This document shows, piece after piece, positions 1 to 15,397 of a stretch of DNA of 64,000 bases; position 1 is the first letter of the stretch; every line of letters begins with the position of its first letter. The stretch lies in assembly GCF_000027125.1 (NCBI RefSeq), contig NC_017626.1; one strand, given 5' to 3'. Position numbers and translations under genes: made by a program. The notes beneath the pieces are model-generated. The model had not been told where the DNA came from, ran no database searches, and was given only the letters and a program-made list of their open reading frames with translations. The DNA comes from Escherichia coli 042. Its GTDB lineage: Bacteria; Pseudomonadota; Gammaproteobacteria; Enterobacterales; Enterobacteriaceae.

Positions 1-154
1 ATACCGCATTCATGCTCCTCGTGGTTATGTCCTGACTAGTCTTTACACTCTTTACAGGAACCATTGTCGTACATGATGGCCCAACCAATTGAGTGTACCG
101 CTGTCGACATGGAATCTTCTGCGATACAACAATTCGTATCTACAGAAGGTAACT

Positions 155-1075
155 ATGTTTCCAAAATGCAAATTTTCCCGCGAGTTTCTGCATCCTCGCT
201 ACTGGCTCACATGGTTTGGGCTTGGTGTACTCTGGCTTTGGGTACAGCTTCCTTATCCTGTTCTCTGCTTTCTCGGCACACGTATCGGCACAATGGCGCG
301 ACCATTCCTGAAACGTCGTGAATCTATCGCCCGTAAAAACCTGGAACTTTGTTTCCCGCAGCATTCTGCTGAAGAGCGCGAGAAGATGATCGCCGAAAAC
401 TTTCGTTCACTCGGCATGGCGCTGGTAGAAACCGGCATGGCATGGTTCTGGCCCGACAGTCGCGTCCGTAAATGGTTTGATGTGGAAGGGCTGGATAACC
501 TTAAACGCGCACAAATGCAAAATCGCGGCGTAATGGTTGTCGGCGTCCATTTTATGTCGCTGGAACTGGGCGGCCGCGTGATGGGACTTTGTCAGCCAAT
601 GATGGCCACCTATCGCCCGCATAATAATCAGCTGATGGAATGGGTGCAGACCCGTGGTCGCATGCGCTCTAACAAAGCGATGATCGGCAGAAATAATCTG
701 CGCGGCATTGTCGGAGCACTGAAGAAAGGTGAAGCGGTATGGTTTGCTCCCGATCAGGATTATGGTCGTAAAGGCAGCTCCTTCGCGCCGTTCTTTGCGG
801 TAGAAAATGTCGCCACAACCAATGGCACCTATGTCCTCTCCCGTCTCTCTGGCGCAGCCATGTTGACCGTAACGATGGTAAGAAAAGCGGATTACAGCGG
901 ATATCGTTTGTTCATCACCCCAGAAATGGAAGGCTACCCGGCAGATGAAAATCAAGCCGCTGCCTATATGAACAAGATTATCGAGAAAGAGATCATGCGC
1001 GCGCCGGAGCAGTACCTCTGGATCCACCGTCGCTTTAAAACGCGCCCGGTGGGTGAATCGTCGTTATACATTTAA
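155..1075 (+). CDS. lpxP: Lipid A palmitoleoyl-ACP acyltransferase (cold-induced LpxL paralogue)
   Basis: 306-aa ORF from ATG 155 with GAAGG 5 nt upstream. MFPKCKFSREFLHPRYW... is recognised as E. coli LpxP (HtrB/MsbB family). The ORF-track start at 89 is treated as an upstream extension. Confidence 0.93.
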   Translation: MFPKCKFSREFLHPRYWLTWFGLGVLWLWVQLPYPVLCFLGTRIGTMARPFLKRRESIARKNLELCFPQHSAEEREKMIAENFRSLGMALVETGMAWFWPDSRVRKWFDVEGLDNLKRAQMQNRGVMVVGVHFMSLELGGRVMGLCQPMMATYRPHNNQLMEWVQTRGRMRSNKAMIGRNNLRGIVGALKKGEAVWFAPDQDYGRKGSSFAPFFAVENVATTNGTYVLSRLSGAAMLTVTMVRKADYSGYRLFITPEMEGYPADENQAAAYMNKIIEKEIMRAPEQYLWIHRRFKTRPVGESSLYI

Positions 1076-1107
1076 CAAACTGCTCTTACTCTTTCCCTCC
1101 TCAAATC

Positions 1108-1143
1108 AGCCATAATAACCTCATGGTTTTTATGGCTTTTTTC
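1108..1143 (+). terminator. Rho-independent terminator after lpxP
   Basis: agccataa ... ttatggct stem followed by a T-run, 33 nt after the lpxP stop. Confidence 0.7.
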
Positions 1144-1429
1144 TTAAGGTTTTTTCCTTCGCTGAATCTCTAATTATTACCGTCAGAAATTAAACTGTCG
1201 CCGATATGAGACACCTGTAAGTTACTAAAAGTAAATAAGAAAATGCCTCTTGTCTCGTTTCAGTTTTAGGCGTACATTAGCGCCGTCTCGAGCAGTTTAG
1301 CTCAGAATTCTGGGGTGATGCCCACGGTAAAATACGGACTTTCAATGTCGTTTTGCCCGGTGTCAACTCACTGTATCAGGTGTAATGAAGTCATTCAGGC
1401 GTAACAGTAATTACGCGGAGAGATGTAAA

Positions 1430-1501
1430 GTGAAATATTTCTTTATGGGCATTTCTTTTATGGTCATCGTTTGGGCCGGTACTTTTGCCCTGATGATCTA
1501 A
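1430..1501 (+). CDS. ypdK: 23-aa small membrane protein
   Basis: GTG start with GGAGAG upstream. It translates to VKYFFMGISFMVIVWAGTFALMI*, a single hydrophobic helix that matches the known K-12 small protein YpdK. It is not in the ORF track because it is under 60 aa. Confidence 0.75.
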   Translation: MKYFFMGISFMVIVWAGTFALMI

Positions 1502-1520
1502 AAGCAAACTGTGCAATGAA

Positions 1521-1546
1521 AAACAGGAGCCATCTGGCTCCTGTTT
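1521..1546. terminator. Bidirectional terminator between ypdK and alaC
   Basis: aaacaggagcc-atct-ggctcctgttt is a perfect 11-bp stem with A/T runs on both sides, lying between convergent genes. Confidence 0.8.
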
Positions 1547-1566
1547 GCATTTCTGACGACGATTTT

Positions 1567-2805
1567 TTATTCCGCGTTTTCGTGAATATGTTTGCTGCTG
1601 GCGGGTAGTAAACCGTCGGCACGGAACATCGCTTTAATCCCACGAATCGCCTGACGAATACGGTCTCGGTTTTCAATCAGTGCAAAGCGAACATGCGTGT
1701 CGCCGTAGTCGCCAAAGCCGATCCCCGGAGAGACACAGACCTTCGCTTCGTTAAGCAGTTTCTTGGCAAATTCCAGTGAGCCCATGGCCGCATATGGTTC
1801 CGGGATTTTCGCCCAGACATACATCGAAGCCTTCGGCATTTCGACCATCCAGCCCGCTTCATGCAGCCCTTTAACCAGTACATCGCGGCGGCGTTTGTAC
1901 TGTTCGGCAATGTCGCACACGCACTGTTGATCGCCCTCCAGCGCCGCAATTGCCGCTACCTGCAACGGCGTAAAGGTGCCGTAATCGTGATAGCTTTTAA
2001 TACGTGCCAACGCGCTGACCAGCGTTTTGTTACCGACCATAAAGCCGATACGCCAGCCCGCCATGTTGTAGCTTTTCGACAGCGTAAAGAACTCTACCGC
2101 CACATCGCGTGCGCCCGGCACCTGCATGATTGACGGCGCTTTCCAGCCATCGTAGACGATATCGGCATAGGCCAGGTCATGGACCACCAGCACATCGTAG
2201 CGTTTCGCCAGCGCCACAACCTTCTCAAAGAATTCCAGTTCCACGCATTGCGCGGTTGGGTTCGACGGGAAGCCGAGGAGCATCATCTTCGGTTTCGGAT
2301 AACTTTCACGAATGGCGCGTTCCAGTTCGTTGAAGAAATCGACACCTTCCACCAGCGGCACTGAGCGTACCTGCGCCCCGGCAATCACCGCGCCGTAAAT
2401 ATGAATCGGGTAGCTTGGATTAGGCACCAGTACAGTGTCACCATGATCCAGCGTCGCCAGCATCAGATGCGCCAGTCCCTCTTTCGAACCAATGGTGACG
2501 ATAGCCTCTGATTCCGGGTCGATCTCAACGTCGTAGCGATCCTGATACCAGCGGGAAATGGCGCGACGTAACCGCGGAATGCCGCGTGACGTGGAGTAAC
2601 CATGCGTGTCCGGGCGCTGGGCCACCGTACATAATTTTTCGACGATGTGCGGCGGAGTCGCACCGTCCGGGTTACCCATACTGAAATCGATAATATCTTC
2701 GCCGCGCCGACGCGCAGCCATTTTCAGTTCAGCGGTAATATTAAAAACGTAGGGCGGGAGACGATCAATGCGCGTAAAGCGACGTTCAGGGCGAGTGTCA
2801 GCCAT
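1567..2805 (-). CDS. alaC: Glutamate-pyruvate aminotransferase (class I PLP aminotransferase)
   Basis: 412-aa ORF recognised as AlaC/YfdZ. It has the [13 protein letters not shown]-lysine motif. Confidence 0.93.
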
Positions 2806-3181
2806 AATTTCCTCAGATTAACGTTAGCGCCCGGACCGTCCGAGCGACGCTGCCACGATGGTGGCTGTTTTGAAAATAGCCTGATTAATTTCTGTCTGTC
2901 CAGCGTTTTAGAACATTTTTATCAATGGCTTTAAATGAGGAACTCTGCTTTAAAAACAGGAAATTTATCTATGCTAACAAGAAAATTACCACTCAAATTA
3001 TTAACATTATAATTTCAATAAATTTACCAATCAGAAGTGCATTATCAAGAGATGCATTGCTAATACACCATTTATCTTTCAATCCCCTTTTAAAATTGTG
3101 GTTTTTCCTCAAAAATGGCCTGCTGGTCATCAGCCTTCAGGTTACCTATCATAGAGGTTTAATCCTTATTCAGAGTCACCC

Positions 3182-4879
3182 GTGCACGAAATATTCAACA
3201 TGCTGCTAGCGGTCTTCGATCGGGCAGCGTTAATGCTTATCTGCCTGTTCTTTCTCATCCGTATCCGCCTGTTTCGCGAACTGTTGCACAAGTCGGCGCA
3301 CTCCCCAAAAGAGCTGCTCGCTGTTACCGCCATTTTCTCGCTGTTCGCCCTGTTCAGCACCTGGTCCGGCGTTCCCGTAGAAGGCTCGCTGGTGAACGTA
3401 CGTATTATCGCGGTGATGTCAGGCGGGATTCTGTTTGGCCCGTGGGTAGGCATTATTACCGGCGTGATCGCAGGTATTCACCGTTATTTAATTGATATCG
3501 GCGGCGTGACGGCGATCCCCTGCTTTATCACCAGCATTCTGGCGGGTTGTATATCGGGCTGGATCAACCTGAAAATCCCTAAAGCACAGCGCTGGCGCGT
3601 CGGTATTCTCGGCGGCATGTTATGTGAAACGTTGACCATGATTCTGGTGATTGTCTGGGCACCAACTACCGCATTGGGGATCGATATCGTCTCTAAAATC
3701 GGGATTCCAATGATCCTCGGTAGCGTCTGTATCGGCTTTATTGTGCTGCTGGTGCAAAGCGTTGAGGGCGAAAAAGAGGCCAGCGCCGCGCGGCAGGCCA
3801 AGCTGGCGCTGGATATCGCCAACAAAACGCTACCGCTGTTTCGCCATGTCAATAGCGAGTCATTACGCAAAGTTTGTGAAATTATTCGCGATGATATTCA
3901 CGCCGATGCGGTGGCGATTACTAATACCGATCATGTGCTGGCCTATGTCGGCGTGGGCGAACACAACTATCAGAATGGCGATGACTTCATTAGCCCGACT
4001 ACCCGACAGGCGATGAATTACGGAAAAATCATCATTAAAAACAACGATGAAGCCCACCGCACACCAGAGATTCATTCCATGCTGGTGATCCCATTGTGGG
4101 AGAAAGGCGTTGTGACCGGAACACTGAAAATTTACTACTGCCACGCGCATCAGATCACTTCCTCATTACAGGAAATGGCGGTCGGTCTGTCGCAAATCAT
4201 CTCCACGCAACTGGAGGTTTCGCGTGCCGAGCAGTTACGTGAAATGGCAAATAAGGCAGAGCTTCGCGCTCTGCAAAGCAAAATTAATCCCCATTTTCTG
4301 TTTAACGCTCTGAACGCTATTTCATCGTCAATCCGTCTGAATCCAGATACCGCTCGCCAGCTGATCTTTAATCTGTCGCGTTATCTGCGCTATAACATTG
4401 AATTAAAAGACGATGAGCAAATCGATATCAAAAAAGAGCTGTATCAAATTAAAGACTATATTGCCATTGAGCAGGCCCGCTTTGGCGACAAGCTGACGGT
4501 TATCTATGATATTGATGAAGAGGTGAATTGCTGCATTCCCAGCCTGCTGATCCAGCCGTTGGTGGAGAATGCCATTGTCCACGGTATCCAGCCTTGCAAA
4601 GGTAAAGGCGTTGTCACCATCAGCGTTGCAGAGTGCGGCAATCGGGTACGCATTGCGGTGCGAGATACCGGGCACGGCATCGATCCAAAGGTGATTGAGC
4701 GGGTCGAAGCGAATGAAATGCCGGGCAATAAAATTGGTCTGCTGAATGTCCATCATCGCGTGAAGTTATTGTATGGCGAGGGGCTGCATATCCGCCGCCT
4801 GGAACCAGGAACGGAAATTGCGTTTTACATTCCTAACCAACGCACCCCAGTCGCCTCACAGACTACGTTATTGCTTTGA
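3182..4879 (+). CDS. ypdA: LytS-family sensor histidine kinase (pyruvate-responsive YpdA)
   Basis: 565 aa from a GTG start. It has an N-terminal multi-TM 5TM-LytS region, a central GAF-like region, the [11 protein letters not shown]-box and a C-terminal HATPase. Matches K-12 YpdA. Confidence 0.93.
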
Positions 4880-4893
4880 GCCGGAGTGATATT

Positions 4894-5628
4894 GTGAAAG
4901 TCATCATTGTTGAAGACGAATTCCTGGCACAACAGGAACTGAGCTGGCTAATTAAAGAGCACAGCCAGATGGAGATTGTCGGCACCTTTGACGACGGTCT
5001 GGACGTGTTGAAGTTTTTGCAGCATAACCGCGTCGACGCCATTTTTCTGGATATCAATATTCCGTCGCTGGATGGTGTGTTGCTGGCGCAAAACATCAGC
5101 CAGTTCGCCCATAAACCATTTATTGTGTTTATCACCGCGTGGAAAGAACATGCGGTAGAAGCGTTTGAACTGGAGGCGTTTGACTACATTCTCAAACCGT
5201 ATCAGGAGTCACGCATTACCGGGATGCTGCAAAAACTGGAAGCGGCCTGGCAACAACAGCAGACCAGCAGCACGCCTGCCGCGACGGTAACGCGTGAGAA
5301 TGACACCATTAATCTGGTGAAAGATGAGCGAATAATCGTCACGCCAATTAACGATATCTATTACGCCGAAGCGCACGAGAAAATGACCTTTGTCTATACG
5401 CGGCGTGAATCCTACGTAATGCCGATGAACATTACCGAATTTTGCAGCAAACTGCCGCCGTCGCATTTTTTCCGCTGCCATCGCTCATTTTGTGTCAATC
5501 TGAACAAAATCCGCGAGATCGAACCGTGGTTTAATAACACCTACATTCTGCGGCTGAAAGATCTGGATTTTGAAGTGCCAGTCAGCCGCAGCAAAGTTAA
5601 AGAATTCCGCCAGTTAATGCATCTTTAA
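4894..5628 (+). CDS. ypdB: LytTR-family response regulator
   Basis: 244 aa from GTG 4894 (VKVIIVEDE...). It has a REC domain (FLDINIP) and a C-terminal LytTR domain. The ORF-track start at 4876 is rejected. Confidence 0.92.
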   Translation: MKVIIVEDEFLAQQELSWLIKEHSQMEIVGTFDDGLDVLKFLQHNRVDAIFLDINIPSLDGVLLAQNISQFAHKPFIVFITAWKEHAVEAFELEAFDYILKPYQESRITGMLQKLEAAWQQQQTSSTPAATVTRENDTINLVKDERIIVTPINDIYYAEAHEKMTFVYTRRESYVMPMNITEFCSKLPPSHFFRCHRSFCVNLNKIREIEPWFNNTYILRLKDLDFEVPVSRSKVKEFRQLMHL

Positions 5629-5640
5629 TCGGGAACTTTC

Positions 5641-6498
5641 ATGAAAGCACCAGGCTTGCCCGCCGATCAACAATTTTTCGCCGATCTGTTCAGCGGCCTG
5701 GTGCTTAACCCGCAACTACTGGGGCGCGTCTGGTTTGCCAGCCAGCCTGCCTCGTTACCGGTGGGCAGTTTATGTATTGATTTTCCCCGTCTGGATATCG
5801 TGCTGCGCGGCGAATACGGCAATCTGCTGGAAGCAAAGCAGCAACGTATGGTTGAAGGAGAAATGCTGTTTATTCCAGCGCGCGCGGCTAATTTACCGAT
5901 CAACAACAAACCGGTGATGCTGTTAAGCCTGGTGTTCGCACCGACCTGGCTTGGGTTATCGTTTTACGATAGCCGTACCACGTCGTTGTTGCATCCTGCT
6001 CGCCAGATCCAACTTCCCAGCCTGCAACGCGGCGAAGGTGAAGCAATGCTTACTGCCCTCACCCATCTTAGCCGTTCGCCGCTGGAGCAGAATATCATTC
6101 AGCCACTGGTGTTAAGTTTGCTGCATCTTTGCCGCAACGTGGTGAATATGCCGCCGGGCAATTCGCAGCCGCGCGGCGATTTTCTTTATCACAGCATTTG
6201 TAACTGGGTTCAGGATAATTATGCGCAGCCGCTCACCCGTGAGAGCGTGGCGCAGTTTTTTAATATCACGCCCAATCATCTGTCAAAACTGTTTGCGCAG
6301 CATGGAACAATGCGTTTTATCGAATATGTGCGTTGGGTGCGAATGGCGAAGGCGAGGATGATTTTGCAGAAATATCATCTGTCGATTCATGAAGTGGCGC
6401 AGCGTTGCGGCTTTCCGGACAGCGACTATTTTTGTCGCGTCTTCCGGCGTCAGTTTGGCCTGACGCCGGGAGAGTACAGCGCCCGTTTTCAGGGCTAA
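5641..6498 (+). CDS. ypdC: AraC/XylS-family transcriptional regulator
   Basis: 285 aa with a C-terminal double HTH (…FPDSDYFCRVFRRQFGLTPGEY). Matches YpdC. Confidence 0.92.
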   Translation: MKAPGLPADQQFFADLFSGLVLNPQLLGRVWFASQPASLPVGSLCIDFPRLDIVLRGEYGNLLEAKQQRMVEGEMLFIPARAANLPINNKPVMLLSLVFAPTWLGLSFYDSRTTSLLHPARQIQLPSLQRGEGEAMLTALTHLSRSPLEQNIIQPLVLSLLHLCRNVVNMPPGNSQPRGDFLYHSICNWVQDNYAQPLTRESVAQFFNITPNHLSKLFAQHGTMRFIEYVRWVRMAKARMILQKYHLSIHEVAQRCGFPDSDYFCRVFRRQFGLTPGEYSARFQG

Positions 6499-6500
6499 CG

Positions 6501-8996
6501 TCAGAAGGTTAATTCCGTTTCCAGCAGCGTCAGGATGCTTTGCGCATCTTGCGCGGCGAACAGCGACTGGCGGAAGTTTTTATTCACCAGTTTACGCGCC
6601 AGCTGCGAGAAGACTTTCACATGATTCATCCCTTCGTTAGCGCCCAGTGTCAGCATGATCACCAGTTCGACTTCGCCCATTTCTGACTGCCAGTCAACCG
6701 GTTTCACCAGCCGGGCAATGCTGATACTGGAATGACGGATCCACTGAGATTTGGTATGCGGGATCGCTACGCCAAAACCAACGCCAGTAGTAACAATCTC
6801 TTCCCGCTGCCAGACATCTTCTTCCAGCTCAAACGGATGTTCAGTACGCCCGTTAACACCAAGGTTGCCGCACAGGAACTGGATCGCCTGCTCTTTATTA
6901 CTAAAGTCCTGATCAACAAAGATATTCTCCAGCGCCAGCAGTGGGCGAACGTCTTCTTCCGGCGTAAAGGCGGTGAGTAACGCTTCAATTTCCTGCGCAC
7001 TGCGGCATTCACATGCCTGACGCGCCAGTTCCCGACACGCCTCGCTATCCAGTTGACGAAGCTGGCTTTTCACCGCCGGAATGCGCGGGCTACTCATGCT
7101 TAACTCGTCCAGGCCCAGCCCAAGCAGTAGAGGCAGATAACGACTTTCACCGCCTAGTTCACCGCAAATACCTACCCATTTGCCGCGCTGATGCGCAGTG
7201 GTAACAATCTGCTGCAACATGCGCAGGAACGATGGCGTAATCGGGTTATACAGCGGCGATACGCGCGGGTTATTACGATCGACCGCATACAGATACTGGG
7301 TCATATCGTTAGAACCGATACTGAAGAAATCGACCTCATCGCAGAAGTGGTCGATGATGTAGCACACCGACGGCACTTCCACCATGATACCCAGCGTAAT
7401 CGTCTCTGCATGACGCAGACCATCGCGTTTAAGCTCAACGATCGCTTTTTGGATCTCACCCTTCACCCATAAGATCTGATCGAGGCTGTGAACCATCGGG
7501 ATCATCAGCTGGGCGTTGCCGAAACTGGCGGCACGCAAAATAGCCCGCAGTTGAGTGCGGAACAGGCCAGCAAATTCCGGGTAAATTCGTACCGCACGAT
7601 AGCCGAGGAACGGGTTCTCTTCCTGGGGAATGTTGAGGTAAGGAATGCTTTTATCGCCGCCGATGTCCATTGTGCGGAAGATAATCGGCTTGTCGCCCGC
7701 GGCCAGTAGCACCTGCTGGTAGGCTTCAAATTGCTCCTGCTCGTCCGGCGCGCTGTCGCGATCCATATAGAGCATTTCAGTACGGAACAGCCCAACACCT
7801 TCCGCGCCGTTGGCAAACGCGCCAGGCGCTTCCAGAGCAGTGCCAATATTCGCCGCAATATCAATGCGCTTGTTATCACGGGAATAGGCCAGCTGCGCGG
7901 CGGCCTGCGCCTGTTGTTGCTGACGTTTATCCGCCAGCGTCTGCGCAACCTGATAATAACCGCTCACCGCGTCATCAGGATTAATCGCCAGCACGCCGCA
8001 CTGGGCGTCAAGCACCGCCGGTTGCCCGGCATAACGGGCAATCGCATCCAGCGGCAGGCCGCTAAGAACCGGGATCGCCGAGGCGCGGGCCAGAATCAGT
8101 GTATGCGAGGTGCGCCCGGTTTTCTCCAGAATCATGCCCGCAAGATTTTTTAAATCGAGGCTTAAAAACTGGCTTGGGGTTAAATCTTCAGCCACCAGAA
8201 TGGTCGGTTTTTCAAGCACCAGATTGTTGCGCGGCTTCAGTTCCGGCCAGGTGATATGCAGCAACTGTTCGCTGATATCGCGAATGTCGCTAACACGCTC
8301 GCGCAGATAATCGCTGGCAGAAGCAGATAGTTTGGCGCAAACCTGCTCCATATTGCTGATGATCGCCGCCCCCAGCCCCTGATGCTGTTCTGCCATCAGG
8401 CGACGGATATTGCCCGCAAATTCATCATCCTGGATCAGCGACAAATGGGCGCTGAGGATAGTTTTGCTTTCTCCGTCACGCTCACGCAATTGCTGGTTCA
8501 GTTGCTCGGCAAGCGTTGCCAGGCTGTGCTCCAGCAGGGTGGAATCTTGCGCACTGGCGGGGATTGCCCGATAACTATCGAGGCTGTCGCTCTGTAACAG
8601 GGTCAGCGTACCCACGCCGACGCCGCTTGCCAGCACATTGCCGTACAGTAAATCAGGATTCAGACGGCTTAATGAACGCGGCAGCGGATGCGCCGTCAGT
8701 TTTGCCTGTGTTGGCTGGATGCTGTCGCTGTCGATAAAGCGCACCTGGATGTACTCTTCCAGCACGCGCCGCGCCTGCTCTTCATCGCTGCCGCTAATGT
8801 TCAGGCTGCAACTGTCATTAAATAAAGTGCCAGTGCCAATCAGCGCCAGCGAGCTTTTGGCATCTGCCTTTGCGTTCTGGCGATGGTTAATAAAAGTGAT
8901 TTCGCTTTGCCACTGGTTGCACTGTTCTTTAAGTTCCCACGCCGGACGAGCATGCAGACCGTTTGGCAAAGGACAGAGAAATTGAATCGTTAACAT
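6501..8996 (-). CDS. fryA: Multiphosphoryl-transfer PTS protein (HPr-EI-EIIA fusion)
   Basis: 831 aa. It has an N-terminal HPr-like motif GLHARPA, the EI phosphohistidine motif GRTSHTLILARA and a C-terminal EIIA(Fru/Ntr-type) AIPHTK. Matches FryA/YpdD. Confidence 0.93.
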   Translation of the reverse strand: MLTIQFLCPLPNGLHARPAWELKEQCNQWQSEITFINHRQNAKADAKSSLALIGTGTLFNDSCSLNISGSDEEQARRVLEEYIQVRFIDSDSIQPTQAKLTAHPLPRSLSRLNPDLLYGNVLASGVGVGTLTLLQSDSLDSYRAIPASAQDSTLLEHSLATLAEQLNQQLRERDGESKTILSAHLSLIQDDEFAGNIRRLMAEQHQGLGAAIISNMEQVCAKLSASASDYLRERVSDIRDISEQLLHITWPELKPRNNLVLEKPTILVAEDLTPSQFLSLDLKNLAGMILEKTGRTSHTLILARASAIPVLSGLPLDAIARYAGQPAVLDAQCGVLAINPDDAVSGYYQVAQTLADKRQQQQAQAAAQLAYSRDNKRIDIAANIGTALEAPGAFANGAEGVGLFRTEMLYMDRDSAPDEQEQFEAYQQVLLAAGDKPIIFRTMDIGGDKSIPYLNIPQEENPFLGYRAVRIYPEFAGLFRTQLRAILRAASFGNAQLMIPMVHSLDQILWVKGEIQKAIVELKRDGLRHAETITLGIMVEVPSVCYIIDHFCDEVDFFSIGSNDMTQYLYAVDRNNPRVSPLYNPITPSFLRMLQQIVTTAHQRGKWVGICGELGGESRYLPLLLGLGLDELSMSSPRIPAVKSQLRQLDSEACRELARQACECRSAQEIEALLTAFTPEEDVRPLLALENIFVDQDFSNKEQAIQFLCGNLGVNGRTEHPFELEEDVWQREEIVTTGVGFGVAIPHTKSQWIRHSSISIARLVKPVDWQSEMGEVELVIMLTLGANEGMNHVKVFSQLARKLVNKNFRQSLFAAQDAQSILTLLETELTF

Positions 8997-9020
8997 AACC
9001 GCTCCGGGTTAATCAGGAGA

Positions 9021-10058
9021 TCATCTGAAATCCGTCAGTTGAACAACCGTCTCACGCGTAAGACGTTGAATAAGGGCAGATAAAAGCTGCTGCATCTGCA
9101 AAATGTCACGGCAATCGGCAATCGATGCGGCGCAATGTCCGTGGCGGGTCGCAGGCCCCATCACCACTGTGGGTACGCCAGTGCCGGTTAAGTGCACCGC
9201 CCCACCGTCCGTGCCACCGTTGCTGAACATATCTGCCTGTAACGGCACGCTAATTTCTGCCGCCACGGTTTCAATCCACGCGGTAAGTTTTGGCGGCGCA
9301 ATCAGCGATTTATCGCTTAACACCAGCATCGGGCCGTTACCAATCTGACGATGGTTAGCCGCGCCATAATCAAAGTTTTTCGCCCAGCAGGCGGTATCCA
9401 GCACAATCGCAACGTCCGGTGAAACCGCACGGGTAGCGGTTTGCCCGCCGCGTAAGCCGACCTCTTCGCTGGAGCTGGCCACCAACCACACTTCCGCAGG
9501 CAGTTCGGCATCGTGCAGCTCACGTAGTAAGGTAACTAACAGGTAGCAACCGAGGCGATCATCAAAGGCTTTCCCCATCACTCGCTGGTGAGGGAGAACC
9601 TGAAAAGTGGTATCAAAGGTGACGCGATCGCCTGGACGAATTCCCGCCTGCATCACTTCGTCATACGAGCGAGCGCCAATGTCCACGCGCATGGCGCTGA
9701 CGTCATTCCCCTGCCGGTCGCCGTCAAGCAGGCCAGGTATTTTGCACTCTTCACGGGTGGTGATCCGCACCGGCTGAAGCTGTCGGGCAGCCATGCGCAC
9801 GTTGCCAACTGGCAGCACATCAATCGCCCCTTCGCGGGAGATGCTGCGCACCATAAATCCCACTTCGTCCATATGCGCACAGATCATCACCTTCGGACCT
9901 GTCGATTCATTGAGGCGGATCAGCACCGATCCCAGCCCATCAAATCGCACTTCTTTTTGCAGGCGATCCGCTTCTTCCAGCAGGATCTGCCGTACTTCCT
10001 GTTCCGAGGAGGCGATCGCATCTGCCTCGCTCAACGCTTTTAGTAACGATAAATCCAT
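9021..10058 (-). CDS. ypdE: M42-family aminopeptidase
   Basis: 345 aa recognised as YpdE, a paralogue of FrvX and SgcX. Its start overlaps the ypdF stop by 1 nt. Confidence 0.92.
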
Positions 10059-11143
10059 TATGCCTCTCCCGTGAGCAACACTGTTTTCGGCATGGCGTAG
10101 AGCACTTCTGCGCCTTGCGGGGTGACCAGCACAACATCTTCGATGCGCACGCCCCCTTGCCCTGGCAAATAAATCCCCGGCTCCACGGTCAGTAACATGC
10201 CTGGCTGTAGCGTCGTGGTATCCCGCGGTGAAAAACGCGGCTCTTCATGGACTTCAATGCCGATAGCATGACCGGTGTTATGACCGAAATAGTCGCCATA
10301 ACCTGCTTCTGTAATGACCCGGCGCGCGGCATCGTCAACCTGCTGGCAGCGCACGCCGGGGCGAATCGCGGAGATTGCTGCGAGCTGTGCCTGCAGGACA
10401 ATCTGATAGACGTTAAACAGCGGGTGAGATTCGGCGCTCACCCCTTCGCCATTCACCAGCAAGGTGCGCGTCATATCAGAGCAGTACCCCTGATAGAGCG
10501 CACCAAAATCAAGAGTGACAAACTCGCCCGCTGCAACAATCTTGTCGCTGGCTTTACCGTGCGGCAGCGCGCCACGCCAGCCGCTGGCGACAATGGTGTC
10601 AAAAGAAGCTTTTTCTGCGCCCTGCTGGCGCATAAACCACTCCAGTTCAGCGGCTATCTCGCGCTCGCTCATCCCCGCCTGAATAAAGCGGCGAATATGC
10701 TCAGCACCGCGATCGGCAATCCCACAGGCGAGGCGGATTTTCTCCACCTCCTCTGGCGTTTTGATTTGCCGCAGCACATCCGGCGTGGCGCTAACCAGTT
10801 TCGCATTGAGTTCAGACTGCCAGCGGTGCGCGGTTTCCCAACTCACCTGCTGGCCCTCAAAACCGAGCGTTTGCAACTGCTCATCGGCAATGATTTGATT
10901 GACGATAGTGGTAAGCGTGTTCGTCGCGTCAAGCAAATGCAGCTGGTAGCCTTGCGTGCGGGCTTCTACATCCGCGTAATAGCGCGAATCCACCAGAATG
11001 TGCGCACTTTCACGGCTAATCACCACATAGCCTGATCCGGTGGAGATCCCCAGATGCGGCTGTTTGTTCTGCCGTGAGGAGAGAAGCACCGCATCCAGTT
11101 GTTGCGCCTTAAGCCAGTCGCGCAGCGAAGCGAGTAATGTCAT
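10058..11143 (-). CDS. ypdF: M24B Xaa-Pro/Met aminopeptidase
   Basis: 361 aa with a pita-bread fold signature ([13 protein letters not shown]). Matches YpdF. Confidence 0.92.
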
Positions 11144-11157
11144 CTGGATTTTCCTTC

Positions 11158-12405
11158 TTACAGGCTATCGATTAACAATTTGCCTTTACGGAACATCATC
11201 AGACGCAGGAACACCACCATCAGCGCAGTAATGACTGCCCCCAACGCGATCCCCGCCATGTAGACGCCGAGGTTAGTGACCAGCGGCCATGCCCAGATAG
11301 CGGACTCCGGGAACCATTGCACTGCGCCCAGCCAGACTGCAGCGGTTGAGCCGACAATCGCGCCGACCATATAGGACGGAATGGCGGTGATGGGGCTTTC
11401 CAGTGCAAACGGAATCGCACCTTCACTGATCCCCATAAACGCCAGGAACATGGCGGTTTTACCCTGCGGATAAAGCTGAGCACTGAACAGACGTTTGCCG
11501 GTTAAACGGCGGTCGATAATGGTCGCCAGACCCAGACCAATCGGCGGAATAACGATAGCGATAGAACGTGCGGTGACCGGTAATACGTGGTCCGTGGTAA
11601 AGCTGAAGGCAACGAAACCAGCTGCTTTGTTGATCGGGCCACCAAGGTCAATTGCTGTCGCCGCGGCGATCCCCATCGCGTACATCAGCGCGCCCTTCTC
11701 ACCTGCGGCAGTCAGCACGGTACGGATACCGCCGTTGATCCAGCCGCCAAAGGGGGTGATGACGTAGTACATCGCCAGCATGACAAAAATGGCGGAAAGA
11801 ATCGGTAGCAAAAATGTGGTTTTGAACGCTAACAGGAAATCCGGTAACTGGATTTTCTGGTTCATCCATTTCACAAGGTAACCAGCAACGATAGAAATAA
11901 TCAGGGCACCAATGAAGGTGGACGGCACCGGCGAAGAGGTCGCCCATTGCATAGTGCTGGGATCGAAGTTCAGCAGTTGCGTCGGCTGGGTAGACATCAA
12001 GCCGCCAATAAAACCAGCCGGGAACGCCAGTTTGCCGCCGATAGAGTTCGCCACAAAAGCGGCAAACATCGGAATGGCGAAACCAAACAACACGCCGCCG
12101 AAGGACTGCGACAGCCAGGCAAATTTCAGTAAGGAAAGGTCGAAACCGGAGAATTTCCCGCTATTAAGAGCATCCATGATGCCGATATCAGCAGGAATTT
12201 TAAGCCAGCTATAAGCAATCAGCTGGCTGAAAGCGAGGATCACACCGCCCATAATTAAGGTCGGCACCATGCGTGAAATCCCTGACATCACATGCTGCGG
12301 GAGTTCACCCCAGAAGCTGCTTTTAGAGGCCTGCGGATTCTTAACTGCCGCTGCCGCACCGGATGCGCCAGGCACAACGGTTGCACTGCGTTTTTTAATG
12401 GCCAT
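11158..12405 (-). CDS. fryC: PTS EIIC component, fructose-like
   Basis: 415-aa polytopic membrane protein. Matches FryC/YpdG. Confidence 0.92.
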
Positions 12406-12426
12406 AACAATTATCCCTGTCGAATA

Positions 12427-12753
12427 TTACTGTTGTTCAGAGGCAATCATCTCTTCGATTTCTTTGATGATGCCCGCAGCGTTTTTAATTGCGTCCTGCA
12501 AAGTGATTTCATAAACGTCGCGTGATTCGAAACGTTCGTTATCTTCCGGGGTAACCGCCACGGAGTGGATGATGATGGTCGCTTCGGCGATATCCTGCGC
12601 GGTCAGGCGATTCTGGATGCCGTCCGCGCCCTGAGTTTCAATTTTCACTTCATAGCCTGCTTCCACCGCCGCTTCTTCCAGCGCCTGGGCAGCCATAAAG
12701 GTGTGAGCCAGACCCATCGGGCAGGCACATAAAGCAATCAGTTTCTTACTCAT
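12427..12753 (-). CDS. fryB: PTS EIIB component, fructose-like
   Basis: 108 aa from ATG 12753 with a GAGGA SD. It has the active-site Cys motif CACPMGLAHT. The 125-aa ORF-track extension is rejected. Confidence 0.9.
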   Translation of the reverse strand: MSKKLIALCACPMGLAHTFMAAQALEEAAVEAGYEVKIETQGADGIQNRLTAQDIAEATIIIHSVAVTPEDNERFESRDVYEITLQDAIKNAAGIIKEIEEMIASEQQ

Positions 12754-12934
12754 CGTTAATTCCTCGTTCAGTGATAGTTGACGAGTGAAATTATGAACGT
12801 GCAAAACAAATCGCCGTTACCAGACAAATAATGCATTTACTGGAGAATTAATCCCGCTGCACGGAAGTGTGACGCAGGTCGGCCTTGTGAGGGGACACAA
12901 AGGAAAATTGAATTAACTGTATGATTTAAAAGAT

Positions 12935-12958
12935 TATCGGGAGAGTTACCTCCCGATA
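12935..12958 (-). terminator. Hairpin terminator after glk
   Basis: tatcgggag-(6 nt)-ctcccgata is a 9-bp stem lying 14 nt after the glk stop. The U-tract on the minus strand is moderate. Confidence 0.55.
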
Positions 12959-12971
12959 TAACAGGAAGGAT

Positions 12972-13937
12972 TTACAGAATGTGACCTAAGGTCTGGCGTA
13001 AATGTGCACCGGAACCGAGAAGACCCGGATTGTCATGGACGATGAGATACACCGGAATATCATGGACATATTCTTTAAAGCGCCCTTTATCTTCAAATGC
13101 GGCACGGAAACCGGAGGCTTTGAAGAACTCAAGGAAGCGCGGCACGATACCACCCGCAATAAACACGCCGCCAAATGTCCCGAGATTGAGCGCCAGATTG
13201 CCGCCAAAACGGCCCATAATGACGCAAAACAGCGACAACGCGCGGCGGCAATCGGTGCAGCTGTCAGCCAGCGCACGTTCGGTAATATCTTTTGGCTTGA
13301 GATTTTCTGGCAGGCGGTTGTCGGCTTTCACAATCGCGCGATACAAATTCACCAGCCCAGGACCAGAAAGCACGCGCTCTGCCGAAACATGACCAATTTC
13401 TGCACGCAGTATTTCGAGGATAATGCCCTCTTCTTCACTATTCGGCGCAAAATCAACGTGACCGCCTTCGCCTGGCAAGCTTACCCAACGCTTATCTACA
13501 TGGACCAGATGCGCAACCCCAAGCCCCGTTCCGGCACCGTAAACCGCAATAGGCTTACCTTCGACCGGTTCTGCGCCACCAAACTGAATCAGATGCTCTT
13601 TTTTCAGCATCGGGATCGCCATCGATACAGCGGTAAAATCGTTAATAATTTCCAGATGGCTAAAACCGAGATTCTTTTTCATTTCGGCAATTGAGAACGC
13701 CCAGGTATGGTTGGTCATTGCCACCCAGTCACCGGTAATTGGGCAAGCGATGGCAATACAGCCGTCTTTCACCTCGACCTTATGTTCTTCAAGATAAACG
13801 CGAATGACCGCTTCGAGGCTGGGGTAATCAAGCCCTGAATAGGTCTTAGCCTGCGAGATTTCACCACTGGCAATATCACACAGAGCAAGACGTGCGTTGG
13901 TGCCGCCCACATCACCGACTAATGCATACTTTGTCAT
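12972..13937 (-). CDS. glk: Glucokinase
   Basis: 321 aa, [19 protein letters not shown]... is recognised as E. coli Glk. Confidence 0.96.
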
Positions 13938-14140
13938 TCTTCAACTGCTCCGCTAAAGTCAAAATAATTCTTTCTCACACTGTAAATACCTGGGGGCATA
14001 ACAACAACGCCGGAAAGGCAGGCTCCCTGTAAATATCGATCTGGGTCACACAATTACTTTATCGTTTCAGCACCAATTGCAGCGATGCCTTTTTGCAAGC
14101 TGGGCAAACTAAGTATCTGACCCCGCATAAGGAATAGAAT

Positions 14141-15397
14141 ATGCTCCATCCGCGAGCCAGAACCATGTTGTTATTATCGCTCCCCGCCGTGGCAATTGGG
14201 ATTGCGTCCAGTCTTATTCTGATTGTGGTGATGAAAATCGCCTCGGTATTACAGAATTTGCTCTGGCAACGACTGCCGGGAACTCTGGGGATAGCCCAGG
14301 ATTCACCTTTCTGGATCATCGCCATATTAACGCTAACAGGTATTGCGGTGGGGTTGGTTATCCGTTTCAGCCAGGGGCATGCCGGACCAGACCCCGCCTG
14401 TGAACCGCTGATCGGCGCACCAGTTCCGCCCTCTGCGCTACCAGGACTTATCGTAGCATTAATTCTCGGTCTTGCTGGCGGCGTCAGCCTGGGGCCGGAA
14501 CATCCGATCATGACCGTCAATATCGCCCTTGCGGTTGCCATTGGCGCTCGTCTGTTACCGCGCGTCAACCGAATGGAGTGGACTATTTTAGCCTCTGCCG
14601 GCACCATCGGCGCGCTGTTTGGCACACCTGTTGCGGCGGCGTTGATATTTTCGCAAACCTTAAATGGCAGTAGTGAAGTTCCGCTATGGGATCGTCTTTT
14701 TGCGCCATTAATGGCGGCAGCAGCTGGTGCACTTACTACCGGATTATTTTTCCATCCCCATTTTTCACTGCCCATTGCGCATTACGGACAGATGGAAATG
14801 ACCGATATTCTCAGCGGTGCAATTGTCGCGGCGATTGCCATCGCAGCAGGGATGGTCGCCGTATGGTGCTTACCACGGTTGCACGCGATGATGCATCAAA
14901 TGAAAAATCCGGTGCTCGTGCTGGGTATTGGCGGATTTATTCTCGGTATTCTGGGGGTTATGGGTGGACCAGTTTCGCTGTTTAAAGGGCTGGATGAGAT
15001 GCAGCAGATGGTGGCAAATCAGGCTTTCAGCACCAGCGATTACTTTTTGCTGGCGGTGATTAAACTTGCCGCCCTGGTCGTTGCTGCCGCCAGTGGCTTT
15101 CGCGGTGGACGAATCTTCCCGGCAGTGTTTGTCGGCGTGGCATTAGGGTTGATGCTGCATGAGCACGTTCCCCCCGTTCCAGCGGCAATAACCGTTTCCT
15201 GCGCTATTCTCGGCATCGTGCTGGTGGTAACACGCGATGGCTGGTTAAGTCTTTTTATGGCGGCAGTCGTTGTACCCAATACCACATTGCTACCGCTGCT
15301 CTGTATCGTCATGCTTCCGGCATGGCTGTTATTAGCAGGTAAGCCGATGATGATGGTCAATCGTCCGAAGCAACAGCCACCCCACGATAACGTTTAG
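14141..15397 (+). CDS. yfeO: ClC-like ion transport membrane protein
   Basis: 418-aa polytopic membrane protein. Matches YfeO. Confidence 0.9.

Follow-up and report, generated by a model that had tools for sequence, protein, structure and literature searches.

The locus considered here poses the question of which of two neighboring systems owns a regulator gene that lies between them. It is part of a 64,000-nt stretch of Escherichia coli 042 (NC_017626.1; hereafter the window, in which all coordinates are given), whose region 1567–13937 reads alaC / ypdA–ypdB–ypdC / fryA–ypdE–ypdF–fryC–fryB / glk. The gene in question, ypdC (5641–6498, plus strand), encodes a regulator of the AraC/XylS type and stands between the two-component system genes ypdA and ypdB and the convergent phosphotransferase system (PTS) operon fryB–fryC–ypdF–ypdE–fryA (6501–12753, minus strand). 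This is an ordinary, already known and annotated region of E. coli: the gene order is that of K-12 b2379–b2388, the encoded proteins are 99–100% identical to those of K-12 at the amino acid level, and the 3.7-kb interval 2806–6503 is found in 5422 of 5426 complete E. coli genomes. An earlier note, made from the letters alone, had named these genes and placed them correctly, as the open reading frames (ORFs), Pfam matches, and the match to K-12 confirm, and had described ypdABC as a unit parked against the fry operon. Our analysis leads to a different division. We consider it likely that two modules meet between ypdB and ypdC, and that ypdC is the regulator of a fry cassette, acting at the promoter of fryB (PfryB).

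The evidence for this division comes from the distribution of the genes in 80 YpdB-centered loci, each from a different species and with 10-kb flanks, onto which the proteins of the window were mapped. This shows a conserved Enterobacteriaceae backbone of alaC (minus strand), ypdA–ypdB (plus strand), and glk (minus strand). Neither ypdC nor any fry gene is present in 64 of the 80 loci, and in 51 of these glk follows within 150 nt of ypdB. ypdC and fry occur together, between ypdB and glk, in 14 loci, which comprise all Escherichia species, seven Citrobacter, and Pseudocitrobacter faecalis, and fry without ypdC was found in none (0/80). Two loci have ypdC only; in one of them (L068) fryA lies 8 kb downstream, past an insertion, and in the other (L020, C. 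amalonaticus) other genes occupy at least the next 9 kb after ypdC, with no fry within the flank. One locus (L052) retains pseudogene fragments of ypdC only, and no fry.

A second set, of YpdC orthologs (58–82% identity) from genomes with adjacent ypdB and glk, extends this picture to other chromosomal contexts. Klebsiella sp. MISC125 has its ypdC (82% identity), convergent to fryA–ypdE–ypdF–fryC–fryB, at a site between asnS and a porin gene; in Enterobacter hormaechei, Pseudenterobacter, and a group with 63% identity, the site of these six genes is bounded by a flavin-reductase gene and rna. Salmonella bongori has alaC, a 566-bp gap, and then ypdC–fry–glk without ypdAB, in agreement with a report that Salmonella lacks YpdAB (PMC5552118); in Kluyvera sichuanensis, ypdAB–ypdC is followed by a 5.5-kb insertion and then by fryA. 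In every resolved locus, and in at least three chromosomal contexts, ypdC is convergent to fryA–ypdE–ypdF–fryC–fryB. Because ypdC covaries with fry across contexts and not with ypdAB, we assign it to the fry module; judged from synteny, the module boundary is ypdB|ypdC (5628|5641) and not ypdC|fryA, which replaces the arrangement proposed in the earlier note. A link of YpdAB itself to fry is likewise not supported, given that ypdAB and ypdC–fry are separate in most genera and that each is found without the other. A literature search returned no reported YpdC target and no reported ypdC–fry linkage, and a comparative study of LytS/LytTR systems makes no mention of ypdC (PMC5552118).

The position of ypdC in Escherichia could be read in another way. 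In E. coli the gene starts 12 nt after the ypdB stop codon, and by the promoter scan neither the ypdB–ypdC gap nor the 3′ part of ypdB contains a promoter-like site; for this reason read-through from ypdAB into ypdC is probable in Escherichia. If this probable cotranscription reflected a shared function, YpdC would be an accessory regulator of the YpdAB/pyruvate network (acting, e.g., on yhjX, btsT, or ypdAB), and its adjacency to fry would be incidental; the field does handle ypdABC as one unit, with a ypdABC deletion strain in use. The distribution of the genes speaks against this: the 64 species noted above have ypdAB with no ypdC at the locus, YpdC orthologs occur away from ypdAB, and in S. 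bongori in its absence, yet beside fry in every resolved locus, and YpdC diverges in step with FryA, whereas YpdB stays 88–100% identical across the 80 species. We therefore regard a role of YpdC in the pyruvate network as quite improbable.

The surroundings of ypdC elsewhere give a further indication of how it may be expressed. In the Enterobacter group it starts 1–2 nt after the flavin-reductase gene or overlaps it, and in Klebsiella it is preceded by a 158-nt gap, leaving ypdC without a promoter of its own in two of three contexts. As the contexts share no sequence upstream of ypdC, the cassette seems to rely on read-through from the host locus. In Escherichia the supply of YpdC would thereby be tied to the ypdAB promoter, which we take to follow from where the cassette inserted and not to indicate that the two work together.

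Domain matches and a structural model indicate that YpdC is a full-length AraC/XylS protein of the sugar-regulator type, with an N-terminal ligand-binding/dimerization domain. Its C-terminal domain of ~100 amino acids, with two helix-turn-helix (HTH) motifs, is matched by the Pfam families HTH_18 (E 1e-20) and HTH_AraC (E 5e-13), and profile matches in the PDB are to the DNA-binding domains of AraC, SoxS, GadX, and MarA. The AlphaFold model (mean predicted local distance difference test score, pLDDT, 86.7) consists of an N-terminal β-sandwich, linker helices, and the two HTH motifs, with eight predicted β-strands over residues 30–126 followed by helices. In the Foldseek comparison, Rns, CsvR, and ToxT gave full-length matches, the RhaR regulatory domain and cupins matched weakly, and isolated AraC-type DNA-binding domains reached template modeling (TM) scores of 0.8–0.9. 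The NCBIfam matches to RhaR, RhaS, and AraC were all below threshold, and no equivalog threshold was reached.

A candidate site of action for such a protein is found upstream of fryB. The 260-nt regions preceding fryB in 12 loci, which cover all three chromosomal contexts, were aligned. About 105 bp are conserved in all contexts, and homology ends upstream of ~12885, beyond which the sequences run into the glk, rna, or porin-gene flanks. The control region internal to the cassette (12790–12883, minus strand) contains, in the direction of transcription, a conserved CRP-like site of the form nnnGA-N6-TCACA (12868–12883), a conserved block (12816–12848) holding a direct repeat with a period of 20, whose units are TCCAGTAA (12837–12844) and TCTGGTAA (12817–12824), and a −10 element, CATAAT (12790–12795), that is invariant in the 12 loci. 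The promoter scan called no consensus σ70 promoter upstream of fryB, where no −35 element is recognizable. The pattern formed by the two repeat units is unique in the window at 0 mismatches. If transcription is assumed to start 7 nt past the −10 element (at ~12783), the repeat units lie at −61/−54 and −41/−34, and the CRP-like site is centered at −92.5. The region thus looks like a candidate AraC-type promoter. The earlier note had proposed that YpdC be sought on the region upstream of fryB, and this proves to be the best-supported of its ideas. A second operator-like match, inside fryA (6704–6731, 3 mismatches), was rejected as a chance occurrence, since its orthologs show ordinary drift at third codon positions.

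YpdC is probably the regulator of the fry operon, and the explanation that we favor would work as follows. The first module is the pyruvate-responsive YpdA/YpdB (PyrS/PyrR) pair in the alaC–ypdA–ypdB–glk backbone, expressed from a predicted promoter at 3124–3152 and with its known target, yhjX, elsewhere. The second is a cassette of ~7.2 kb, from 5641 to ~12885, in which ypdC stands tail to tail with fryB–fryC–ypdF–ypdE–fryA and which would have been moved or lost as a unit in the course of enterobacterial evolution. The N-terminal β-sandwich domain of YpdC would take up an inducer; inducer-bound YpdC would then sit on TCCAGTAA-N12-TCTGGTAA, abutting the missing −35 of the fryB promoter, and YpdC and CRP would together activate the fry operon, as AraC does at PBAD or RhaS at rhaBAD. 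In Escherichia ypdC lacks a promoter of its own and is probably read through from ypdAB, owing to the landing site of the cassette.

Similarity to the AraC–PBAD and RhaS/RhaR–rhaBAD systems extends to both partners. On the side of the protein these are the C-terminal double HTH and the predicted N-terminal β-sandwich, and on the side of the DNA the candidate direct-repeat boxes ~20 bp apart, the missing −35, the good −10, and the CRP-like half-site ~92 bp upstream of the presumed start. There are also differences. ypdC is convergent with the 3′ end of its putative target operon and not divergent from the promoter of that operon; it lacks, as described above, a promoter of its own in two of the three contexts; and YpdC gave no peaks in K-12 under the conditions tested by chromatin immunoprecipitation with exonuclease digestion (ChIP-exo; PMC8464067).

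The junction between ypdC and fryA lies inside the putative cassette. With the last base of ypdC at 6498 and the fryA stop codon at 6501–6503, exactly 2 nt (6499–6500) remain between the convergent genes, as the earlier note had described. The terminator scan found no terminator-like site on either strand of 6250–7000, and the remark in the note that there is no room for a terminator is literally true; such junctions, on the other hand, are not unusual. At the ypdB|glk junction of Pseudescherichia, Enterobacter sp. kpr-6, and Kosakonia, which have no cassette, the stop codons abut (0–2 nt) or overlap, with no terminator. Abutting convergent geometry alone is unremarkable. Most other genera without the cassette have a 30–50-nt hairpin at the ypdB|glk junction. 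The ypdC–fryA stop gap is 2 nt in all Escherichia and Pseudocitrobacter, 0–3 nt in the Enterobacter group, 16 nt in Klebsiella, 102 nt in S. bongori, and 287–1134 nt in Citrobacter. Because it is so widespread across genera, the tight apposition is probably ancestral to the cassette and not an accident of parking.

The only strong structure near this junction lies inside ypdC. A perfect 10-bp GC-rich palindromic hairpin, CCGGCGTCAG-TTTGGC-CTGACGCCGG (6444–6469, minus strand), falls within the last 55 nt of ypdC, where it is contained in the codons F-R-R-Q-F-G-L-T-P-G, and lies 31 nt past the fryA stop. Its fold on the minus strand has a z score of −5.4, with none of 200 shuffles as good. The stem is fully retained wherever the stop codons are 0–16 nt apart, including in orthologs with a YpdC identity of only 58–68%, and is degraded in three loci with insertions between ypdC and fryA; in L020 the amino acids of the hairpin are kept and three stem positions are changed. 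Synonymous identity to E. coli is 8–10 of 10 in the hairpin codons versus ~50% in the rest of ypdC (Fisher p 0.003–0.1 per pair, the pairs not being independent). Pairing is retained at 94.8% on the minus versus 89.5% on the plus strand, and changes that preserve pairing through G·U number 13 on the minus and 2 on the plus strand. No U-run follows the hairpin on either strand, and for this reason it is not a canonical terminator.

Stable stem-loops occur at the processed 3′ ends of Rho-terminated mRNAs, and the hairpin may be such a 3′-end stem-loop of the fry mRNA, a candidate role suggested by its sequence and position. In common with those structures it is GC-rich, has a 10-bp stem and no U-tract, lies shortly past the last stop codon of the operon, and is untranslated on that strand; it differs from them in lying inside a convergent coding sequence and in being a perfect palindrome, which could act on either strand or as DNA. 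In the explanation that we favor, the hairpin would define or protect the 3′ end of the fry mRNA, and Rho would stop untranslated read-through.

Alternatively, the junction without a terminator could itself be regulatory, with ypdC and fry damping each other through transcriptional interference or antisense RNA as fry transcripts extend antisense into ypdC or ypdABC transcripts extend into fryA. The stop gaps of 0–16 nt in Escherichia, Pseudocitrobacter, Klebsiella, and the Enterobacter group, together with the lack of an intrinsic terminator on either strand and the confinement of strong structure to ypdC, would fit such an arrangement. Citrobacter and S. bongori, however, keep the cassette at gaps of 102–1134 nt, Kluyvera tolerates insertions of 5–8 kb, and the abutting stops at the ypdB|glk junction of other genera indicate that tight packing need not carry meaning; we regard a regulatory junction as unlikely. 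A more elaborate form of the cassette model, which we consider doubtful, combines a self-contained, relocating 7.2-kb cassette, a promoterless regulator wired to the upstream host gene, a hairpin selected at synonymous sites that forms the mRNA 3′ end, and read-through from fry into ypdC as negative feedback on the activator. If the cassette does relocate in this manner, ypdC would be wired to a pyruvate-sensor operon in Escherichia and to a flavin-reductase gene in Enterobacter.

Several observations weigh against YpdC as the activator of fry, and the foremost is the negative ChIP-exo result, in which no binding at fryB was seen (PMC8464067); this would be explained if the inducer was absent and the result is then the expected one. 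The link between ypdC and fry is gene-neighborhood evidence and not functional evidence, and in L020 ypdC stands without fry within 9 kb. At PfryB, the overlap of the repeat with the −35 position and the −92.5 geometry depend on the assumed start, the CRP-like site has a good right half, TCACA, but a weak left half in which GA alone is conserved, and the putative operator repeats an 8-mer only. As to the hairpin, its strand asymmetry was rejected as proof of function on the minus strand, since most synonymous transitions open to these ypdC codons, with their third-position Gs, are G to A on the plus strand, which yields this pattern automatically; the asymmetry is largely explained in this way and does not point to the strand on which the hairpin would act. 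Finally, a genuine-looking YpdB box ahead of ypdA in Kluyvera, described below, makes autoregulation of ypdAB possible in some lineages.

Some of the same observations would be accounted for if ypdC–fry were a cryptic or decaying island, with YpdC effectively inactive in E. coli and the conserved block upstream of fryB no more than a basal promoter. The missing ChIP-exo peaks, a PTS without a known substrate, and the record of loss and breakage would agree with this: 64 of the 80 species have no cassette, L052 retains no more than pieces of ypdC, and ypdC and fryA are parted by insertions in L068, in L090, and probably in L020. Decay is nevertheless hard to reconcile with the integrity of all six genes throughout the Escherichia species sampled, Citrobacter, Klebsiella, and the Enterobacter group, with FryA being 77–99% identical and 831 amino acids long throughout, and with the conservation across contexts of the control sequences and of the synonymous sites of the hairpin, which indicates that selection is still acting. 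An inactive island thus appears to us an unlikely explanation.

The assignment of YpdC to the fry operon matters for two reasons. YpdC is listed as uncharacterized (PMC4797297) and is among the few E. coli transcription factors that remain so, and the statement of the earlier note that its role is not established agrees with this listing and with the absence of ChIP-exo peaks (PMC8464067); for the Fry PTS, an orphan system, neither a substrate nor a regulator is known. The added value of the present analysis is a testable assignment, that of YpdC as an AraC-type activator of fry at the candidate operator 12816–12848. It should also be noted that ypdABC deletion strains used in studies of pyruvate sensing lose the probable fry regulator as well.

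The first module, in turn, is the known two-component system of K-12. YpdA (PyrS; gene at 3182–4879, plus strand) is a LytS-type sensor histidine kinase with matches to the Pfam families 5TM-5TMR_LYT (E 2e-42), GAF (E 6e-07), His_kinase (PF06580; E 4e-25), and HATPase_c (E 7e-11), and YpdB (PyrR; 4894–5628, plus strand), the last gene product of the two-component module, is a response regulator with matches to Response_reg (E 2e-24) and LytTR (E 1e-34). The mechanical ORF of ypdB opens at a TTG at 4876; the annotated start is the GTG at 4894. Both proteins are orthologs of K-12 b2380/b2381, with 100% amino acid identity, the same domains, and the same order of neighbors (alaC–pyrS–pyrR–ypdC–fryA…glk). 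The phosphoacceptor Asp53, seen in the translation of YpdB, is likewise shared with K-12, where a D53E variant is in use (PMC4847170). That YpdAB acts on the distant gene yhjX, as the earlier note stated, agrees with the literature (PMC4847170; PMC5552118).

The earlier note had further pointed to a direct repeat of TGCATT in the spacer between alaC and ypdA (2806–3181), which, as it had described, is 376 bp long and AT-rich (36.7% GC vs. 52.7% for the window). The two copies, at 3038–3043 and 3053–3058 (plus strand), are indeed present and are the only ones in the spacer, and the 11-mers quoted around them agree at 7 of 11 bases. The repeat does not exceed chance expectation: among 2000 dinucleotide-preserving shuffles of the spacer, 88% show one or more direct repeats of a 6-mer spaced 6–25 nt apart, and the observed total of five such repeats is equaled in 22% of shuffles.

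Were this repeat a YpdB operator, the two-component system could regulate its own ypdABC genes or the divergent alaC. LytTR regulators do bind direct repeats, generally of 9–11 nt with 11–13-nt spacers, and the YpdB site at the yhjX promoter, GGCATTTCAT-N11-GGCATTTCAT, with a period of 21 (PMC4847170), includes GCATT in its motif; this site has been reported as highly conserved. In the TGCATT pair, by comparison, the exact repeat is 6 nt, the spacer 9 nt, and the period 15 (~1.4 helical turns), which bears out the caveat of the earlier note that the spacing is short, and, of the 10 positions of GGCATTTCAT, the first copy mismatches 5 and the second 4. The best pair in the spacer at a period of 19–23 has 7 mismatches to the motif pair, and 54% of shuffles equal or better it; no pair with ≤5 mismatches was found in the whole window by a scan in which the published yhjX site, as a positive control, scores 0 mismatches. 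Conservation gives the same answer. Both copies are intact in E. coli proper only; E. ruysiae, E. whittamii, E. albertii, and two further Escherichia lineages have one copy or none, and the other genera compared have no such pair here. When 20 genera are aligned, no part of the spacer is less conserved than the stretch that contains the repeat, and the second copy overlaps a block, ATTGyWAATACAmCA, that is common to Escherichia and Citrobacter only. Moreover, yhjX has been described as the sole target of YpdAB, and ypdB mRNA stayed flat while yhjX rose 43-fold (PMC6545925; PMC5552118).

A point in favor of an operator at this place comes from another genus. The alaC–ypdA spacer of Kluyvera cryocrescens (L030:8152–8167) has GGCATTTCATTCTGTT, a perfect YpdB half-site with adjoining spacer that agrees with site A and spacer of yhjX in 15 of 16 bases and whose location corresponds, to within ~5 nt, to that of the second E. 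coli copy; a second unit, a 6/10 match, lies 20 nt downstream, and 9/10 motif matches occur in Kluyvera genomosp. 1 and in one C. amalonaticus (the further loci with such a site being L028 and L022). These sequences suggest that YpdB autoregulation may exist, in Kluyvera only. In E. coli the TGCATT pair is a chance repeat and not a YpdB operator, having the wrong length, period, and motif match and lacking conservation outside the species; at most it could be what is left of a decayed site, out of phase, and the operator reading is very improbable.

Two further observations concern the same motifs. A perfect GGCATTTCAT occurs inside the ypdA coding sequence (4713–4722, minus strand), and its conservation in many species presumably reflects coding constraint; over the window as a whole the motif is not enriched, with 4 matches at ≤1 mismatch versus 7.5 expected. 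The 8-mer TGCATTAT, shared by the first TGCATT copy (3038–3045) and the fryB operator (12828–12835), was weighed as a possible YpdC site ahead of ypdA and discarded: the window has two occurrences versus 3.1 expected, its flanks are unalignable, and the first copy is not conserved even within Escherichia.

Phylogenetic footprinting of the spacer in the 20-genus alignment revealed four conserved blocks, A–D. Block D (3124–3152, plus strand) is the predicted σ70 promoter of ypdA, consisting of TGGTCA, 17 nt, and TATCAT, with a predicted start near 3159; CTGGTCAT is nearly invariant and the −10 TATCAT invariant across the 20 genera, and this is the only good σ70-like site that the promoter scan found ahead of ypdA. 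It is missing, along with ypdAB, in S. bongori, where the clean loss (L085, 9435–10000) removed ypdA–ypdB and the ypdA promoter and left the alaC leader and block C. Blocks B (TTAACA..ATATCAAT..TTAC; 3001–3028) and C (AATCCCCTTTTAAAATTGTGGTTTTTCC; 3081–3115) are strongly conserved and noncoding, and because block C survives in S. bongori in the absence of ypdAB, it may serve alaC.

Block A (2806 to ~2905, minus strand) comprises the predicted alaC promoter, with a −35 TGGACA at 2897–2902 a −10 TATTTT at 2873–2878, and a predicted start near 2866, and a leader of ~60 nt (promoter and leader together 2821–2902). The leader contains two adjacent hairpins and is almost invariant over at least 20 enterobacterial genera. 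Hairpin 1 (2852–2865) shows compensatory changes at three pairs, and hairpin 2 (2821–2850) is nearly invariant, with one compensated pair in Kluyvera; RNAalifold, run alongside a single-sequence fold, found four pairs with double-sided changes. The leader may be an undescribed cis-regulatory or stabilizing element. A long-range helix that RNAalifold proposed between 2896–2903 and the alaC Shine–Dalgarno region is probably spurious, as its bases coincide with the conserved predicted −35. Rfam gave no match at E ≤ 1 within 2806–6503, including the spacer, the leader, and the ypdC–fryA junction, and the sole Rfam match in 1–14500 is a chance plastid match at 1452–1546. SgrR activates alaC (PMC4021124); the best match of the spacer blocks to the SgrR-bound region upstream of sgrS is 13–14 of 18, and shuffles reach 13/18 in 70% and 14/18 in 19% of cases, so that this comparison assigns no block to SgrR. 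The spacer also holds an 8-mer direct repeat, GCTTTAAA, at 2928–2935 and 2947–2954 (period 19 nt), which is longer than the TGCATT repeat and is not conserved in other Escherichia species.

The remaining genes of the region, all on the minus strand, were identified from their ORFs and the K-12 annotation, with Pfam support for alaC and the fry genes. alaC (yfdZ; 1567–2805) encodes a glutamate–pyruvate aminotransferase (Aminotran_1_2) that is 100% identical to K-12 AlaC. Within the fry operon, fryA (6501–8996) encodes a fused HPr–EI–EIIA, ypdE (9021–10058) an M42 peptidase, ypdF (10058–11143) an M24 peptidase, fryC (11158–12405) EIIC, and fryB (12427–12753) EIIB. glk (12972–13937) is followed by an intrinsic terminator found by the terminator scan (12935–12958), with a 10-bp stem and then ATCTTTT, which lies outside the cassette. 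The M42 and M24 aminopeptidase genes always stand between fryC and fryA, in every chromosomal context, which hints at a sugar–peptide or amino acid conjugate, and not a plain sugar, as the substrate of the cassette. The closest parallels in E. coli are the frv (frvABXR) and frw systems, which, like fry, are fructose-family EIIB/EIIC systems with no known substrate; frv also has an M42-type peptidase homolog, frvX, and a dedicated regulator gene, frvR. By the K-12 annotation, fry differs from both in having its own fused HPr–EI–EIIA (FryA), M42 and M24 peptidases together, and an AraC-type regulator.

Three of the sampled loci are unusual in their own right. Two records titled Enterobacter hormaechei (L003 and L009) have an alaC–ypdA–ypdB segment 98–100% identical to that of E. 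coli, an Enterobacter-type ypdB/glk junction, and no ypdC–fry, a mixture that could reflect intergenus recombination, a chimeric assembly, or a mislabeled record. In E. coli ECDA1023 (L002, 6671–9983), alaC and ypdA are recovered by tblastn in several fragments of 42–99% identity, which is probably frameshift-rich sequence stemming from an assembly error rather than biology.

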